Of a stretch of 16,073 nt of DNA, positions 1,462 through 16,073 are shown piece after piece. The notes beneath the pieces were generated by a model. That model did no database searches. It saw nothing but the letters and a program-made list of their open reading frames with translations, and was not told where the DNA came from. The stretch's first letter is position 1; every line of letters begins with the position of its first letter. The stretch is from a virus. Its lineage: Duplodnaviria > Heunggongvirae > Uroviricota > Caudoviricetes. The position numbers were made by a program, and so were the translations under genes. The stretch lies in the IMG/VR virus record IMGVR_UViG_2923307698_000005, one strand, 5' to 3'.

Positions 1462-1580
1462 ATATGTCCTTTTATCACCATATCAAGACAAGCCATTGAT
1501 TTAATTAAATAATCTTCACTGAAAAAAGTGCCAAAAATCGCAAATTGACTACACCATTAACTACACCGTTCGGTGCACCG

Positions 1581-1610
1581 TATGAAACAACGTGGAACAA
1601 ATAGACACAA
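1581..1610 (+). repeat. Site A: three 10-bp-phased direct repeats with an AACAA core (tatgAAACAA cgtgGAACAA atagACACAA)
   Basis: Read directly. Shares the 15-mer AACAACGTGGAACAA with site B (9049-9063). Confidence 0.4.
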
Positions 1611-7676: not shown

Positions 7677-8834
7677 TTAATCGTCGTCCTGTGGCAGTTC
7701 CAGAATCTTGATCGCGTTCGAATCCACCACGCCACCGCCTAAATATTTCTGCGCGAAAATTTTGATGAAGCCCGGCTCTGTGAGGTTGTCCGGTCTGGTG
7801 CGAACACCTGTTTCGTGATCAACAATGTAGTAACCGCGTTTGAAGTCACCCAGGGCAATAACGTTATCCGGCATAAACTCCAGATATTCGACCGGAAGGC
7901 CCAGCAACGTATCAGGATCACCCGCCTGTAAACGGTCACGCCAGATGTAATCACCGTTCGCGTTCTTCACCTTCTGGAGTTTTGCCGCCGTCGTGGAGTT
8001 AACCACCCAGACCGCGTTTTTGCGGTATTTTTTACGTAATGCAAATTTCAGGTCGATCAGCGGGTCCGCAGATGTCCACGCCAGAGATTCGGAAGGTTTA
8101 ATTACCTGCAACGTACCAAAATCACGCTCTTTGTCGTTCTTCTCTGCACGGGGTACGGATAGAAAGCCTTTTGCTTTTTTGTCACCGTCGCCCACAACCA
8201 GATCGCTTTCTTCGGTTTCCGTGAAGGTGTCGCCAATCTCGCCCGTCAGCCATGAAAGGATGTCCACATCGGAAAAATCCACGATTTCCTGCGTGGTGCG
8301 CGGGTACGCATAGACCGGATACAGCTTAATGCTCACCTCGTTAATCTGCGGGGTGCTGGTCTGTTCGCGTGCCTTACCCTCTTCACCGTGGTTAACGGTC
8401 GCACCGCCAGCGGAAACAAGCTGCTTAAACTCGTTGCTGCTGATTTTCTTCACGGTACAGATGCGGCGCATGGTGGATTCATCCGTCAGCATTCGCATGA
8501 TTTCGGTGTTCAGTTCGGGGATAACGGTATAACCACCATCAGCGGGAACGCCTGTACTTAATGCGCGGGTTTCACCTGTCAGAATGTAGTGACGTAGTTC
8601 GGCGGGGTCAGTGGTCTGGCTGTTTTTGCCTGGTTTACTGCGCTCTTCGTCAGCAACGGCCTCAAGGCGGGAGATGTCTTTATCGAGGGATTCAGCTTTA
8701 GCGCGTAATTCGTCAAATTTTGCGCCCTCAGCATCGTTAAGGCTGCGGTTTTCTTTTTCCGCGTTCTCCAGCATGTCGCGCATCTGATTTTTAATGGCGG
8801 TTTTCTGCTGGCGTAATTCGATTATTCTCGGCAT
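7677..8834 (-). CDS. Major capsid protein, HK97 fold, with N-terminal delta (scaffold) domain (385 aa from the ATG at 8834)
   Basis: N-terminal coiled-coil-like region (IIELRQQKTAIKNQMRDMLENAEKENRSLNDAEGAKFDELRAKAESLDKDISRLEAV) followed by a capsid body. The track ORF extends to a GTG at 8882 with no ribosome-binding site; the ATG at 8834 has AGGA upstream. Confidence 0.85.
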   Translation of the reverse strand: MPRIIELRQQKTAIKNQMRDMLENAEKENRSLNDAEGAKFDELRAKAESLDKDISRLEAVADEERSKPGKNSQTTDPAELRHYILTGETRALSTGVPADGGYTVIPELNTEIMRMLTDESTMRRICTVKKISSNEFKQLVSAGGATVNHGEEGKAREQTSTPQINEVSIKLYPVYAYPRTTQEIVDFSDVDILSWLTGEIGDTFTETEESDLVVGDGDKKAKGFLSVPRAEKNDKERDFGTLQVIKPSESLAWTSADPLIDLKFALRKKYRKNAVWVVNSTTAAKLQKVKNANGDYIWRDRLQAGDPDTLLGLPVEYLEFMPDNVIALGDFKRGYYIVDHETGVRTRPDNLTEPGFIKIFAQKYLGGGVVDSNAIKILELPQDDD

Positions 8835-9044
8835 AAAAAAAGTCCTGAAGTTAAGTAAGGAACTCCAGGACGCGGCAAACACTCAACCGTTTTTCATAAG
8901 GAAATCAGCAATCGCACCGATCGTTTTCCCGCCTGGTAATGAATATTGGCGGGCACATTAACAGGCGGGAAAGTGGCCCCAGCGTCCTGGCACCACGGGC
9001 GAGAATAATCATGATTCAGTTCGGGTAAAATATGCCGATCCGGT

Positions 9045-9080
9045 CAGCGAACAACGTGGAACAACCACGAACAAATAATT
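9045..9080 (+). repeat. Site B: 10-bp-phased GAACAA direct repeats (gcGAACAAC gtgGAACAAC cacGAACAAA) upstream of the capsid operon
   Basis: Read directly. Lies just downstream (minus sense) of the terminator at 9090-9116 and about 200 bp upstream of the capsid start. A candidate promoter (TTGTTC, 16 nt, TATTTT on the minus strand) sits next to it. Confidence 0.4.
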
Positions 9081-9089
9081 TACAAAACA

Positions 9090-9116
9090 TGACAAAAAGC
9101 CGGATTGCTCCGGCTG
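9090..9116 (-). terminator. Rho-independent terminator ending the replication/early operon
   Basis: 7-bp stem AGCCGGA/TCCGGCT with loop TTGC, followed on the minus strand by UUUUUGUCAUGUUUUG. Starts 6 bp after the PerC-like stop. Confidence 0.55.
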
Positions 9117-9121
9117 TGTGA

Positions 9122-9394
9122 TTATCTGTCCTGGTAATTTCGCCATATTTCATCACCAGCACCATCCATACCCATTTCGGCATAAGTGCGATCGACCGCC
9201 TTTTTCAGGTCTCCGTAATTATCCGGCGGCTCCGGTGGCCTCTGTGCCTTCCTGGAACATTCCAGCCGTCGCATCGTGATGTGATGCCGTTCCTTGTCTG
9301 TCTCCACCAGTTGCATGACTTCACCCCATCGCGCCGACGCTCTCCGGTAAAAGCCTTTCGCCTCCAGTTCTTCCGCTATGCGGTCATGTACCAT
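9122..9394 (-). CDS. PerC-family transcriptional regulator-like protein (90 aa from the ATG at 9394)
   Basis: Translation MVHDRIAEELEAKGFYRRASARWGEVM...TDKER...RR..CSR matches my recollection of the PerC/Pch signature. The track start at 9403 is a GTG; the ATG at 9394 is preferred. Confidence 0.55.
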   Translation of the reverse strand: MVHDRIAEELEAKGFYRRASARWGEVMQLVETDKERHHITMRRLECSRKAQRPPEPPDNYGDLKKAVDRTYAEMGMDGAGDEIWRNYQDR

Positions 9395-9406
9395 CGTCCC
9401 CACCCC

Positions 9407-10384: not shown

Positions 10385-10585
10385 CGCAACCTCTCACTTT
10401 TTCGCCTCACTTTTTCAAGCGTCTCACTTCGTCGCAGTTGGGATTTTTGGTTTTTCTATGTGTGTGTTTCATAAGTATTTTTTTACCCCTCACTTTTGAG
10501 GATGTATACAGGTCGAAAAGTGAGGGGGAGCGGGCTAATTTTGGCCCTCTTTCTATCCCCCTCGCTTTTGCTCCTCACTTTTATA
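10385..10585. repeat. Iteron-type replication origin: seven copies of CTCACTTTT (one inverted, one CTCGCTTTT variant) flanking an AT-rich spacer
   Basis: Copies at 10393-10401, 10406-10415, 10423-10430, 10489-10497, 10517-10525 (inverted), 10561-10569 (variant) and 10574-10582. The AT-rich core is 10441-10485. Lies immediately 3' of the replication ATPase gene. Confidence 0.6.
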
Positions 10586-11981
10586 GCGGCGCTACATCAT
10601 CCCCATCGATACGAATAACCCCATCTTTTTCCAGCTTGTACAGCCAGCGCCGGAAGTTTTTCATTTCATACCCCAGCTTTTTCATGTCATCACGTAACAT
10701 CTGGATCGTGCACTTGTCGCCGTTCTGTGTGCGTGAACGGATGCACCCCCATAGCGCGGTATGGTTTTCCGTCTTGTTCCCTGCCTCCTCGATGCGCTCC
10801 AGTTCAACAGGAGGGCGCGGATCATCCACCACCACCAGCGACGTGATTAATTCACCGTCAGCGTCGGTAAAAAGCTCCACCACGCGTAAGTCATATGCGG
10901 CTTCTTTGAGTTCCTCCGCGTCCTTCATTTTGGTGCATGAGATAACCAGCGCTTCGCTTCCTGCGTCCTCCCTGCGTATCCGGTATTCAGCATCCAGCGA
11001 AGCACGAAATGCACTGGAACCGCGCGCGCCTTTCGTCTCATCCTTGCCGGAATGGTGAACCACCAGCACCGTGGCCCCTGTGCGTCGTTTCAGTTCGTCA
11101 CAACCACGGATAAACGCCCCCATATCACGGGAATCATTTTCATCATTCCCACCAAAGCAACGCGCCAGCGTATCCAGAATAATCATGCGTACAGGTTTAC
11201 CCGTTTCCCGCTCCACCTGACGGGCAGCGATAACCATTTCATCAACATCAAGCGGGGCAGCCGGAAAGATGGGGCGGTTTACCAGATACAGATTTTTCAC
11301 CTGCTCATCGTGCACAACCTCCCAGGCTTTTACACGACGCGGAACACCTATACCGCCTTCACCAACCACATAGAGAACCGCACCATGTGCAACCCTGCGG
11401 CCTCCCCACTGGCGACCAGTGGCAACATGGCACGCCCACGATCCGGCAAGGAATGATTTATAGGACCCGCTAGCCCCGTATATGCTGCATAGCGATACCG
11501 CCGGAATAATCCCCTTAACCACGTAATCCAGTTGCGTGTCGTATCCGGTAGATCCAACGCTCATCGGTAGCGTGGTTTTTCGCTGGTGGTTTTTTTCTTC
11601 CGCCGGCTCTTTCCCGCGCACCCGTTCCAGGTATTCGCGCCAGTTCTCCCGCATATGGCTGTGCATCCCTTCGGGGTAATAATTCGCATCAGTTACACCC
11701 GCCGCCGCCAGCTTGTGCGCAATGGCATTAATATTTGATGGCCTGATGTGGCCTGCCTTGTACAGCCGGACACAATAGCGCCCCTCGTCGATGATTCTCA
11801 GGTCTGCCAGTTCATCCAGTTGATCATCAGCCAGCACAACGGGAGGCACATTATCGCCAGCCAGTCGCCCGTCCTGTTCCTGCCACTGTTTCGCATGTGC
11901 CCAGGCATCACTACCCGCAAAAATAATGACTTCGGTCATCTTGTCGTAAGGCTGTTTTTTTAAGTTCGGTGCGCTTTTCAT
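10581..11981 (-). CDS. Replication protein: RecA-fold (RepA/DnaB-like) ATPase, probable helicase or primase-helicase of the satellite (466 aa)
   Basis: Walker A GASGSYKS and Walker B-like MIILDT in a RecA-like core. Sits between the accessory ORFs and the iteron origin, as the pri-rep gene does in PICI and P4-like elements. Confidence 0.75.
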   Translation of the reverse strand: MKSAPNLKKQPYDKMTEVIIFAGSDAWAHAKQWQEQDGRLAGDNVPPVVLADDQLDELADLRIIDEGRYCVRLYKAGHIRPSNINAIAHKLAAAGVTDANYYPEGMHSHMRENWREYLERVRGKEPAEEKNHQRKTTLPMSVGSTGYDTQLDYVVKGIIPAVSLCSIYGASGSYKSFLAGSWACHVATGRQWGGRRVAHGAVLYVVGEGGIGVPRRVKAWEVVHDEQVKNLYLVNRPIFPAAPLDVDEMVIAARQVERETGKPVRMIILDTLARCFGGNDENDSRDMGAFIRGCDELKRRTGATVLVVHHSGKDETKGARGSSAFRASLDAEYRIRREDAGSEALVISCTKMKDAEELKEAAYDLRVVELFTDADGELITSLVVVDDPRPPVELERIEEAGNKTENHTALWGCIRSRTQNGDKCTIQMLRDDMKKLGYEMKNFRRWLYKLEKDGVIRIDGDDVAPL

Positions 11982-13494: not shown

Positions 13495-13674
13495 GTGTCA
13501 ATACACAAAAACGAAAGGCGTGGTAATCCTCCGTTCCAGTTCCGTTTAGATCCTGACTTACGGGAAAAGATGGAAAAGGCACAACAACAGGACGGCGATG
13601 ATTCTCTTGCTGCCTGGATAAAGCGAATAATCCGCAAAGAATTACAGCAACGCGGCATAGAACCCAAAGGATAA
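13495..13674 (+). CDS. Arc-family ribbon-helix-helix DNA-binding protein (59 aa, GTG start)
   Basis: Not in the ORF track (under 60 aa). GTG at 13495 with GAGG ten nt upstream. Translation VSIHKNERRGNPPFQFRLDPDLREKMEKAQQQDGDDSLAAWIKRIIRKELQQRGIEPKG matches the Arc-type pattern: a PPxFxLRL beta-strand followed by two helices. Confidence 0.6.
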   Translation: MSIHKNERRGNPPFQFRLDPDLREKMEKAQQQDGDDSLAAWIKRIIRKELQQRGIEPKG

Positions 13675-14291: not shown

Positions 14292-14480
14292 TTAATGAAC
14301 TGCCTTGCAGCTATCCTTCCAGGCCAGAACCTCGGATAAAGACCAGCCAACGGAACGACCGCCAAGTTTACGACGTGATGGGAATTGTCCGGCCTTTTCC
14401 AGGCGGTAGCGACACGTACGGCTAAGGCCGGTTAGTTTTTTGCATTCTTTTTCACGTATAAACCGATCAGTGCTTAACAC
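14292..14480 (-). CDS. alpA: AlpA-family transcriptional regulator / excisionase-like protein (62 aa, GTG start)
   Basis: Translation LTGLSRTCRYRLEKAGQFPSRRKLGGRSVGWSLSEVLAW matches the AlpA/Xis-type helix-turn-helix pattern. The ORF has no internal ATG; the GTG at 14480 is preceded by AGGGGG. Lies immediately downstream of the integrase gene. Confidence 0.8.
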   Translation of the reverse strand: MLSTDRFIREKECKKLTGLSRTCRYRLEKAGQFPSRRKLGGRSVGWSLSEVLAWKDSCKAVH

Positions 14481-14750
14481 TATTGCCCCCTTTCGTTTCT
14501 TAAAGAGTCATCAGGTGTCTTATTGTGTCGTATTGTTCCCGCTAGAGTGATGAATGGCAAATACTGAGGATGTATGATTTACAGAAAATGAAACAGTAAG
14601 AATAAAATCTTTTAAATTCATGTTAATACAAAGGCATAAAATATTGTTCCATGCCTTTTTTCTCGCTCTTTAAAGAGTGATTCGCTAGTGTATAAAAACC
14701 AGTAACACATTAAAAATCAGCCACTTATAAATCCGTACGCTTTTTCGCCT

Positions 14751-14800
14751 CTTGTTCGTAGTTGTTCCACATTGTTGCTCATTGTTGCACGTTGTATCTG
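14751..14800 (-). repeat. Site C: four to five 10-bp-phased (C/G)AACAA repeats on the minus strand (gtgCAACAAt gagCAACAAt gtgGAACAAc tacGAACAAg)
   Basis: Read directly. The minus-strand string GTGGAACAACtACGAACAA matches site B (GTGGAACAACcACGAACAA) at 18 of 19 positions. Lies 44-93 bp downstream of the integrase stop. Confidence 0.4.
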
Positions 14801-14843
14801 TTCGCATATCCAGTATGCGCATACTGAAAAAACACGAAAAAAA

Positions 14844-16073
14844 TTATTTTCTTCTGGCTACTGGTAGTGCGGTTACGTTTTCATGTGTTCCCGCCAGTAT
14901 CCCTAACCGCTCCATCCACATATCCAGCGCATTGCGTTTAGCATCCAGATAACGGGAATGATTATAAACTCGCTGCATTCCTGGCATCTGGTGGCCTGTA
15001 AGCTGCTCCACGACGTGAGGATCCACGCCTAAATCGTTCAGCATCGTTGTAAAGGTGCGCCGGATGTCATGTAGTGACCAGTGAGGGTGATTTAGCCTCC
15101 TGTGCGCTAATCTGCCGTACTGCGACACGCTTGTTTCCTGTTTCACTTCCCCCAGCAATAAGCCCGTGTGCCTGTTCTGCTCCACCAGCTGCGTGACGAA
15201 CGGCAGTATTGCTTCCGGTATGGGCCGGAATATGGCTACCTTCGTTTTGCTGTGCTCCTTCGGAACAGTCCAGAGCATTTCGGTAAAATCCCACTCGCCG
15301 ATCTCCGATAACCTAAGTTCGACCGTCCGGCATCCGAACACAATCAGGAGGCGGATTAGCGCGATGTAGTAGGGGGAGAATATTTTTTTGTCCAGTGCCT
15401 GCAATAATTCGCCAAGTTCTTTGTTGCTTAAGACACGCTCGCTTATATCCGGTTTTTTCCCAACGTCCGCCACACTCATATCATCAAGAACGTTGCTGAT
15501 TGCATAGCGCCGCTTCCGGCAGAACTTAAGCGCCTGCTTGCATGTCTGTAGCAGGAACCCGGCGGAAACAGGGGCTTGCTTTGCCACCCGATCAAAACAG
15601 GCCAGCCAGTGCCGTAGCTCGCATTTATCCAGCGGCATAGGGCCAATGTGCTGTATTACGTGATTATTTAGCCGCTTTTTCAGTGGGTCATAATCCACAC
15701 GGTTTTCCTTTGCGTACGACTCAAGCCAGTAGGTGAGCGCATCACCAACCGTTACCGGCTTTAACGCTTCCTGTACGGTGTAATTAAGCTCATGACGTGG
15801 ATTTTTCCCCTCTGCCAGCCATGCGCGACACTGGGCGGCTTTTTCCCTGGCTGATTTCAGGCTCAGATCAGGATAATTTCCCAGCTTAATGCGTTCCGGT
15901 GGTGCCCCCCTTCCCGTTCCGGCCCTGTAAGTGAAATACCAGGTTAAAAGGCCACTGGTTGAATGCCTGACGCTCAGGTTTCCACCGTCATTAAGAAAGG
16001 CTGTTTTTTGGGCGGGTGTGCCGTTGATTTTCCTCAGCTGTGTATCGCTCAGTTTGTTAAGTGCTCTGCTCAT
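14844..16073 (-). CDS. Tyrosine site-specific integrase, P4-like (409 aa)
   Basis: Catalytic-domain motifs near the C-terminus (HDIRRTF, GHQMPGMQRVYNHSRY) and an N-terminal DNA-binding region. The ATG is the reverse complement of the last three bases of the window. Confidence 0.93.
   Translation of the reverse strand: MSRALNKLSDTQLRKINGTPAQKTAFLNDGGNLSVRHSTSGLLTWYFTYRAGTGRGAPPERIKLGNYPDLSLKSAREKAAQCRAWLAEGKNPRHELNYTVQEALKPVTVGDALTYWLESYAKENRVDYDPLKKRLNNHVIQHIGPMPLDKCELRHWLACFDRVAKQAPVSAGFLLQTCKQALKFCRKRRYAISNVLDDMSVADVGKKPDISERVLSNKELGELLQALDKKIFSPYYIALIRLLIVFGCRTVELRLSEIGEWDFTEMLWTVPKEHSKTKVAIFRPIPEAILPFVTQLVEQNRHTGLLLGEVKQETSVSQYGRLAHRRLNHPHWSLHDIRRTFTTMLNDLGVDPHVVEQLTGHQMPGMQRVYNHSRYLDAKRNALDMWMERLGILAGTHENVTALPVARRK

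Follow-up and report, generated by a model that had tools for sequence, protein, structure and literature searches.

Gene content and integration site of the element

The window, i.e. the whole stretch of 16,073 nt that was analysed, begins with phoQ (1-1461, + strand), which precedes the element, and stops at the start codon of int; the right arm of the attachment site is therefore located outside of it. With the exception of a small gene of the Arc-like YlcI/YnfO family (13495-13674, + strand), all satellite genes are encoded on the - strand. From right to left these are the gene of a tyrosine integrase with an N-terminal arm-DNA-binding domain (14844-16073; Pfam Arm-DNA-bind_3, 8e-18, and Phage_integrase, 2e-16), alpA for a winged-helix protein of 62 aa (14292-14480; Pfam Phage_AlpA, PF05930, 5.7e-17; PHROG 'excisionase and transcriptional regulator'), small early genes between alpA and the helicase, a RepA-type helicase gene (10581-11981), the SSB and PerC genes to the left of the helicase (PerC at 9122-9403) and, as the leftmost gene block, an HK97-type packaging module comprising capsid, protease, portal, connectors, HNH, TerS and TerL. 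The first gene of the packaging operon encodes the major capsid protein (7677-8834, - strand, ATG at 8834; Pfam Phage_capsid, 1e-61; start as annotated in L001). By this gene set the element is a capsid-forming satellite of the phage-inducible chromosomal island (PICI) type. Besides AlpA no excisionase-like protein is encoded in the window, and the Rfam search of the window returned no known RNAs. The Arc-like gene, running counter to the other element genes, may encode a repressor acting on the early region.

In the relative L001, which is 95% identical, the element sits between phoQ and roxA and is flanked by the 10-mer AAATATGTCC (4460 and 20856). This attL crossover or identity block is found in the window at 1460-1469, directly after the phoQ stop codon. 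The empty site of K-12 reads AAATATGCCC, and its comparison with L001 puts the crossover at AAATATGTCC, of which the second copy in L001 lies approximately 170 bp upstream of int.

For comparative analyses approximately 95 related loci were used, consisting of E. coli satellites at phoQ/roxA, abgR, ilvL and cspD and of 89 IMG/VR contigs. A scan of genome contigs for AlpA had given 3 loci without useful diversity, and IMG/VR and E. coli genomes were used instead.

Just 3′ of the RepA-helicase gene, copies of CCTCACTTTT are present in direct and inverted orientation at a distance of approximately 84 bp (10385-10582). Satellite origins have been reported directly downstream of the RepA-helicase gene, and this repeat set is likely to be the replication origin, distinct from the AACAA arrays described below.

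Arrays of helically phased AACAA units

Units of the AACAA type are arranged in the element as direct repeats with a period of exactly 10 bp, i.e. one helical turn, across 3-7 units. Arrays had been predicted for three places in the window, and they were confirmed at 1584-1613, 9048-9095 and 14739-14798, the only positions in the window at which at least three AACAA units follow each other at 10-bp spacing. Site A (1584-1613, + strand) consists of three (A/C)ACAA units (AACAA at 1586-1590 and 1596-1600, CACAA at 1606-1610). Site B (9048-9095, + strand) has five units, of which three read GAACAA within 9049-9074 (AACAA at 9050, 9060 and 9070), followed by TACAA at 9081 and GACAA at 9091. Site C (14739-14798, - strand) is oriented opposite to sites A and B and comprises five strong units between 14752 and 14796 and one weak unit; on the + strand these appear as TTGTT at 14752, 14762, 14772 and 14782 and TTGTA at 14792 (AACAA on the - strand). 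The 15-mer said to be common to sites A and B, AACAACGTGGAACAA, and the agreement of site B with the reverse complement of site C at 18 of 19 positions were both found to be correct.

When up to one mismatch was allowed, AACAA-N5-AACAA-N5-AACAA gave 5 matches, all of them inside sites A, B and C, at a mean of 0.01 in shuffled sequences; likewise, 5 matches to SAACAA-N4-SAACAA were obtained with 0.01 expected. With a position weight matrix (PWM) trained on relatives, with the window left out, scores of 30-35 bits were obtained for each of sites A, B and C; the maximum in 100 dinucleotide shuffles was 20.6, and no other position in the window exceeded that maximum. The single AACAA is not enriched (41 observed versus 44.8 expected) whereas phased pairs are (6 versus 0.1), in agreement with the earlier view that the phased arrays alone are meaningful.

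All three predicted arrays are thus real, but the total amounts to four strong arrays and a weak one. The fourth strong array belongs to the P arm upstream of int and was located in L001 at 20749-20773, which is just past the right end of the window. The weak proximal array, GGAACAATAC-GACACAATAA-GACACC, is positioned directly upstream of alpA (14510-14539, - strand); its PWM score of 13.2 is above the shuffle median and below the shuffle maximum, and equivalents with 3-4 units are present in L004/EcCICFT073 and in L001.

Site A is identical in L001, L003, L004 and EcCICFT073. An array after the int stop codon was found in all elements with an AlpA of the window type, in 24 distinct versions of 5-7 units each. 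Among the versions of site C the ACAA core is held at frequencies of.95 (A),.81 (C),.95 (A) and.97 (A), and the bases between the units are variable. In the int-alpA spacer of L053 an exact 10-bp duplication (GAGCAACAAT) corresponds to one extra unit of site C with the phase unchanged. Taken at the level of sequence conservation, these patterns indicate selection on phased, base-specific units and not on the spacers. The arrays accompany the element at four different chromosomal sites.

Arms of the attachment site and candidate integrase doublets

The array found in relatives upstream of int and site A together define the two arms of the attachment site. Site A had been taken for a signal of the junction; the comparison of the P and P′ arms in L001 revised this assignment and places it in the P′ arm, approximately 120-150 bp inside the element. 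A module of 75 nt is directly repeated between the P and P′ arms with 77% identity and is built from ACTACACC-N4-ACTACACC, approximately 17 bp and three (A/C)ACAA units. In the P′ arm the doublet ACTACACC-ATTA-ACTACACC, which has a period of 12 bp, is located at 1548-1567 (+ strand). The P arm doublet is found in L001 at 20711-20730 and the P arm was also seen in L102, in both cases beyond the right end of the window. Relative to the att centre, doublet and array occupy -150 to -131 and -114 to -85 in the P arm and +82 to +101 and +118 to +147 in the P′ arm. The arm arrays are co-oriented, with one in each att arm.

In L001 exact copies of ACTACACC are found in the two att arms only. In 10 loci (L083, L092-L100) the N-terminal domain of Int is approximately 55% identical, and the doublet at the same place reads GTGTGGTCAGTTGTGTGGTCAG. 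Sorted by the class of the Int arm domain, GGTGTAGT x2 occurs with NDGGNLSVRHSTSGLLTWYFTYRAG and GTGTGGTCAG x2 with SDGGGLEIKHSKGGKLTWYFRYRTG, a comparison that covers one alternative Int class in 10 loci of one lineage. The TTGTT(C/T)G x3 array beside the doublet is kept in the 10 loci, and the arrays do not differ between the Int classes (A and B). Restricted as they are to the arms, and switching with the Int arm domain, the ACTACACC doublets are good candidates for integrase arm-type sites and are probably recognized by the arm domain of the integrase. Since the doublet tracks the Int class and the TTGTTC array persists in both classes, the arrays themselves do not appear to be Int arm sites. 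Between the core and the motifs of the P′ arm, AATCAATGGCTTG at 1489-1501 (- strand) fits the IHF consensus, WATCAANNNNTTR, and represents a candidate site.

Two further observations concern attachment regions of relatives. In L001 the approximately 80 bp from the strong P arm array to the core (20776-20860) are filled by a run of weak units, (C/A)A(A/C)A, that keep the 10-bp register, which suggests a longer protein filament that would extend to the crossover site. In K-12 CP4-57 (L103) TAGGCCCA occurs twice with a 12-bp period just upstream of intA (approximately 795-830) and may be another doubled arm-type motif of this integrase family.

The region upstream of alpA

Site C starts approximately 45 nt after the int stop codon and approximately 270 nt upstream of alpA. 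A consensus scan yielded a candidate promoter-like site, TTGCCA-17-AACAAT, at 14532-14560 (- strand), of which the -10-like hexamer AACAAT is at the same time the first unit of the proximal array; TTTGCCA and the (A/C)ACAAT unit are kept in relatives with type-1 AlpA. The distance of site C to this best promoter-like site, approximately 230 nt upstream of it, is unusual for a simple activator, and the overlap of the proximal array with the -10-like hexamer is of a kind that normally suggests repression. Like site C, the proximal array runs in the other direction from site B and from the arrays of the arms. Under the more speculative 'AlpA box' proposal given below, oppositely oriented arrays on the two sides of int might pair and thereby couple the excision complex to the alpA promoter.

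The composition of the array upstream of alpA was compared between three types of AlpA. With type-1 AlpA, ACAA x3 is present in 61 of 63 distinct regions; with type-2 AlpA, CGAAC x3 is present in all regions (11/11), in three spacer versions. For type-3 AlpA, two CGAAC/GTTCG units at a distance of 10 bp directly precede the alpA start in 4 of the 5 printed loci and also in L080 as read, the exception among the five being L081 with a CGAAC x3 array; the unit pair is present even where another gene lies between int and alpA. Upstream of alpA, array composition differs by AlpA type with hardly any difference in the Int arm domain, and in the regions compared it follows the AlpA variant. The motifs of type-1 and type-2 AlpA are similar, so that the covariation with AlpA is modest.

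Additional elements were noticed in the same region. A perfect palindrome of 16 bp, CAGTATGCGCATACTG, is located between the int stop codon and site C (14811-14826); it is present in the lineages of the window, L001 and L003 and absent from L004 and EcCICFT073. A hairpin AAAGGCAT-N13-ATGCCTTT with a T run on its + strand side, located between site C and alpA (14630-14658), is kept in type-1 relatives and looks like a terminator of antisense (+) transcription or an attenuator upstream of alpA. In L092-L094, L097 and L080, which have other AlpA variants, alpA is preceded by a terminator-like hairpin, the stem-loop of which carries two CGAAC (or GTTCG) units 10 bp apart.

Site B and the capsid operon

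On the transcribed (-) strand site B reads TTGTTC and lies approximately 210-260 nt upstream of the capsid ATG. Immediately before it, at the end of the early operon after perC, a hairpin with a T run resembles an intrinsic terminator (9098-9115, - strand); equivalents with other sequence are present in L050 and L076. In every capsid-forming relative the transcribed-strand site B, TTTGTTCGTGGTTGTTCCAsGTTGTTC, is kept upstream of the HK97-type capsid gene. In all of these relatives an intrinsic terminator precedes it, including those in which terminator and leader (approximately 200 nt) are unrelated in sequence. Also in L083, a type-2 element, site B is identical. An AT-rich stretch is found 16-18 nt past the last unit of site B, whose position after the terminator is likewise kept. 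A scan of site B for promoter consensus sequences gave no convincing promoter.

In satellites of the EcCICFT073 type the late genes are not preceded by an array, which means that control of late genes by such an array is not general. In L003, an O157 satellite with a different late module, a weaker phased run of ACAA 3′ of perC was observed at 9146-9185 (PWM score 21.5); EcCICFT073 has none there.

The capsid leader itself contains a strong terminator-like hairpin of 11 pairs followed by T7, which ends directly at the capsid ATG at 8834 (8842-8871, - strand). Its 3′ stem includes the sole AGGA of this leader, and the structure could either terminate transcription or sequester the ribosome binding site. 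This hairpin is absent in the L050/L076 lineage.

AlpA as candidate ligand of the arrays

The distribution of the arrays supports the general idea of one-turn-phased sites in outline, as phased units with free spacers were found not only in both att arms but also upstream of alpA and of the capsid operon. Three features typical of a directionality factor are present: direct repeats at one helical turn, their location in the att arms by candidate arm-type sites, and a winged-helix gene of the excisionase type. Xis-type proteins and BldC assemble as head-to-tail oligomers on direct repeats. A single-sequence model of AlpA (pLDDT 78) had the GIsul2 excisionase (8c3t) as its best PDB match, and the next matches of the model were MerR-type domains, RdfS (8dgl), the Xis of mycobacteriophage Pukovnik and BldC; a literature search for the paper belonging to 8c3t found none.

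Published experiments on EcCICFT073 are directly relevant, as this satellite is integrated at phoQ/roxA and shares both Int and AlpA with L004, in which AlpA is 94% identical to that of the window. Arrays are present in EcCICFT073 in the P arm, in the int-alpA spacer (6 units and a proximal run) and in the P′ arm. In the experiments the alpA promoter region was activated in trans by AlpA and the int promoter was unchanged; AlpA alone set off int-dependent excision and replication, and alpA was induced by the helper phage. Since AlpA activates the alpA promoter region, the int-alpA spacer probably contains a site for it, and the only conserved repeats of this spacer are the arrays. Moreover, AlpA must favour excision by a route other than increased transcription of int, and the presence of arrays in the att arms is in line with this. 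In a Vibrio satellite, transcription was unaltered by AlpA. The published roles are in conflict, AlpA having been described as a transcription activator (EcCICFT073), as an excisionase (Vibrio PICMI) and in terms of distinct subfamilies (EcCIMP1). A literature search for a DNA site or binding data of any PICI AlpA found neither.

On the whole, the arrays are probably, if not with great certainty, binding sites of the element's own AlpA. The original prediction had envisaged one protein that polymerises along a face of the DNA and may link excision to the activation of head genes, either a factor of the AlpA/Xis type or the arm domain of the integrase. AlpA is favoured as array composition upstream of alpA follows its variants, if modestly; the integrase is disfavoured as the doublets switch with Int and the arrays stay. 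An integrase reading would hold that the arrays are arm-type sites of its N-terminal domain and that Int controls alpA and the capsid operon through those located outside att. The Arm-DNA-bind_3 domain of Int, the presence of the arrays in both arms in the same orientation and the general build of arm-type sites as tandem direct repeats (lambda P′1-P′3) are in its favour. However, the arm-confined ACTACACC doublets, which switch with the Int class, are the better candidate for this domain, sites B and C, found at gene starts or promoters, are 7.6 and 13.3 kb away from attL, so that the arrays are not confined to att, and the composition upstream of alpA differs by AlpA type while the Int arm domain is nearly constant. 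We consider Int improbable as the ligand.

Another ligand could be the Arc-like repressor or PerC of the element, the inducer of the helper phage or a host regulator of the OmpR/PhoB type, which would read direct repeats approximately 10-11 bp apart. The genes for the Arc-like protein (13495-13674) and PerC (9122-9403) are at hand, and the helper phage induces alpA; furthermore, TorR boxes (CTGTTCATAT) and the PhoP box (TGTTTA-N5-TGTTTA) have TGTT cores in common with the arrays. Yet the arrays are kept in L004, which is devoid of PerC, and in L003, which has no annotated Arc-like gene, unit composition varies with the AlpA type within one host species, and the arrays travel with the element to the four chromosomal sites. 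Boxes of the PhoP/TorR type were rejected as a poor fit in period and invariant positions, since the arrays keep strictly to a 10-bp period and hardly ever deviate at the first T of TTGT. Ligands of this group are therefore regarded as unlikely. Least credible of all, and hardly to be expected, is a function of the arrays as replication iterons, or their being bent DNA without a bound protein, in either case left by the duplication of a single module. DNA can be curved by phased AA dinucleotides, the two arms share the 75-nt module with its 77% identity and site B lies downstream of the replication genes; on the other hand, the helicase-adjacent place is occupied by the separate CCTCACTTTT set (10385-10582), four dispersed sites with two in att arms are unlike an origin, and ACAA cores that are held while the spacers diverge argue for base-specific reading and not for general curvature.

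Proposed mechanism and significance

According to the preferred reading, AlpA, as a protein of the MerR/Xis type, would bind cooperatively and head to tail with one monomer per 10-bp unit. The unit would consist of the core ACAA within the consensus G-R-A-A-C-A-A-Y-G-W, and AlpA would coat one face of the DNA and bend it. In the att arms, beside Int on the ACTACACC doublets and the IHF-like site at 1489-1501, AlpA would serve as directionality factor and give the excisive complex its shape. The known positive autoregulation of alpA would be due to site C and the weak proximal array. At site B, which follows the terminator of the early operon and whose last unit overlaps a weak -35-like TTGTTC, AlpA would switch on the packaging genes. 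With AlpA at the arms, at alpA and at site B, one helper-induced protein would couple excision, self-amplification and capsid production. We infer that AlpA binds the arrays, forms a filament, activates transcription at site B and determines directionality; observed directly are the arrays with their conservation and positions, the covariation of the doublet with Int and that of array composition with the AlpA type. The wider proposal of a portable (G)AACAA 'AlpA box' across a large group of enterobacterial satellites, by which one 62-aa protein would act at four places on excision, self-amplification and, as a direct switch, on the capsid operon, is put forward tentatively and is rather doubtful at this stage.

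AlpA is the master switch of Gram-negative PICIs, and a conserved site in the arms, at alpA and at the capsid operon would make its role directly testable. A portable AlpA box would, if true, settle the dispute over activator versus excisionase, and AlpA arrays would explain how the timing of capsid production is tied to excision in capsid-forming satellites. The AlpA site would also provide a sequence signature for the annotation of satellite att sites and AlpA-controlled promoters. The type of mechanism is well known; new is the candidate AlpA site of Gram-negative satellites, including the site at the capsid operon, which appears to be undescribed.

Comparison with known systems

AlpA of EcCICFT073 and AlpA/Vis of CP4-57 and P4 belong to the same protein family as the AlpA of the window; when CP4-57, the alpA locus of K-12, was searched de novo, no comparable phased array was found. 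For lambda Xis, three winged-helix monomers bind head to tail on X1-X1.5-X2, approximately 30 bp of phased direct repeats by integrase arm sites, and bend the DNA. Its sites differ from the arrays described here in being known from the P arm only, with none known at late promoters, and the motif is unrelated.

AlpA of Pseudomonas aeruginosa has DNA-contact residues up to 142, binds as one molecule per GGGACG between -35 and -10 and loads onto RNA polymerase. It shares with the satellite protein the name and a promoter-reading HTH, whereas satellite AlpA, with its 62 aa, is predicted to be a winged helix only; the Pseudomonas protein has a single site, and the satellite arrays are multi-unit and lie upstream of promoter-like sites. 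An antiterminator model after Pseudomonas AlpA was considered because terminator-like hairpins (8842-8871 and 14630-14658) are located between arrays and genes. It was rejected, as that protein is larger, Q-like and directed to a single GGGACG site, and as the capsid-leader hairpin is not kept in L050/L076.

RdfS of a Mesorhizobium ICE is reported to control excision and transfer of the element (PMC11963761). It is likewise an oligomeric winged-helix excisionase and with 8dgl is among the matches of the AlpA model; it differs in serving a conjugative element without capsid genes and in its motif. In helper-embedded PICIs a doubled motif, tgTGTATTGCantgTGTATTGCa, with a 12-bp period occurs once per att arm, co-oriented and at a fixed distance from the core (PMC10111431); its authors reported the motif as absent in other PICIs and left the ligand open (PMC10111431). 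In its behaviour this doublet resembles ACTACACC x2 and not the AACAA arrays. The ACTACACC doublets add a further group of integrases to those with this 'doubled motif' and suggest that its ligand is the arm domain of the integrase.

Apl of phage 186 and Cox of P2 are small proteins whose sites, direct repeats with a spacing of one helical turn, are found in att as well as in promoters, and each of them couples excision to a transcriptional switch (PMC7498355, PMC3936717). By analogy, AlpA is a candidate for a dual excisionase and regulator acting on att and on promoters. The two phage proteins are of another family and mainly repress the lysogenic promoter, the protein of the window being of PF05930. 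Compared with the Apl and Cox systems, the satellite arrays lie in both att arms, upstream of the autoactivated alpA and upstream of the capsid operon.
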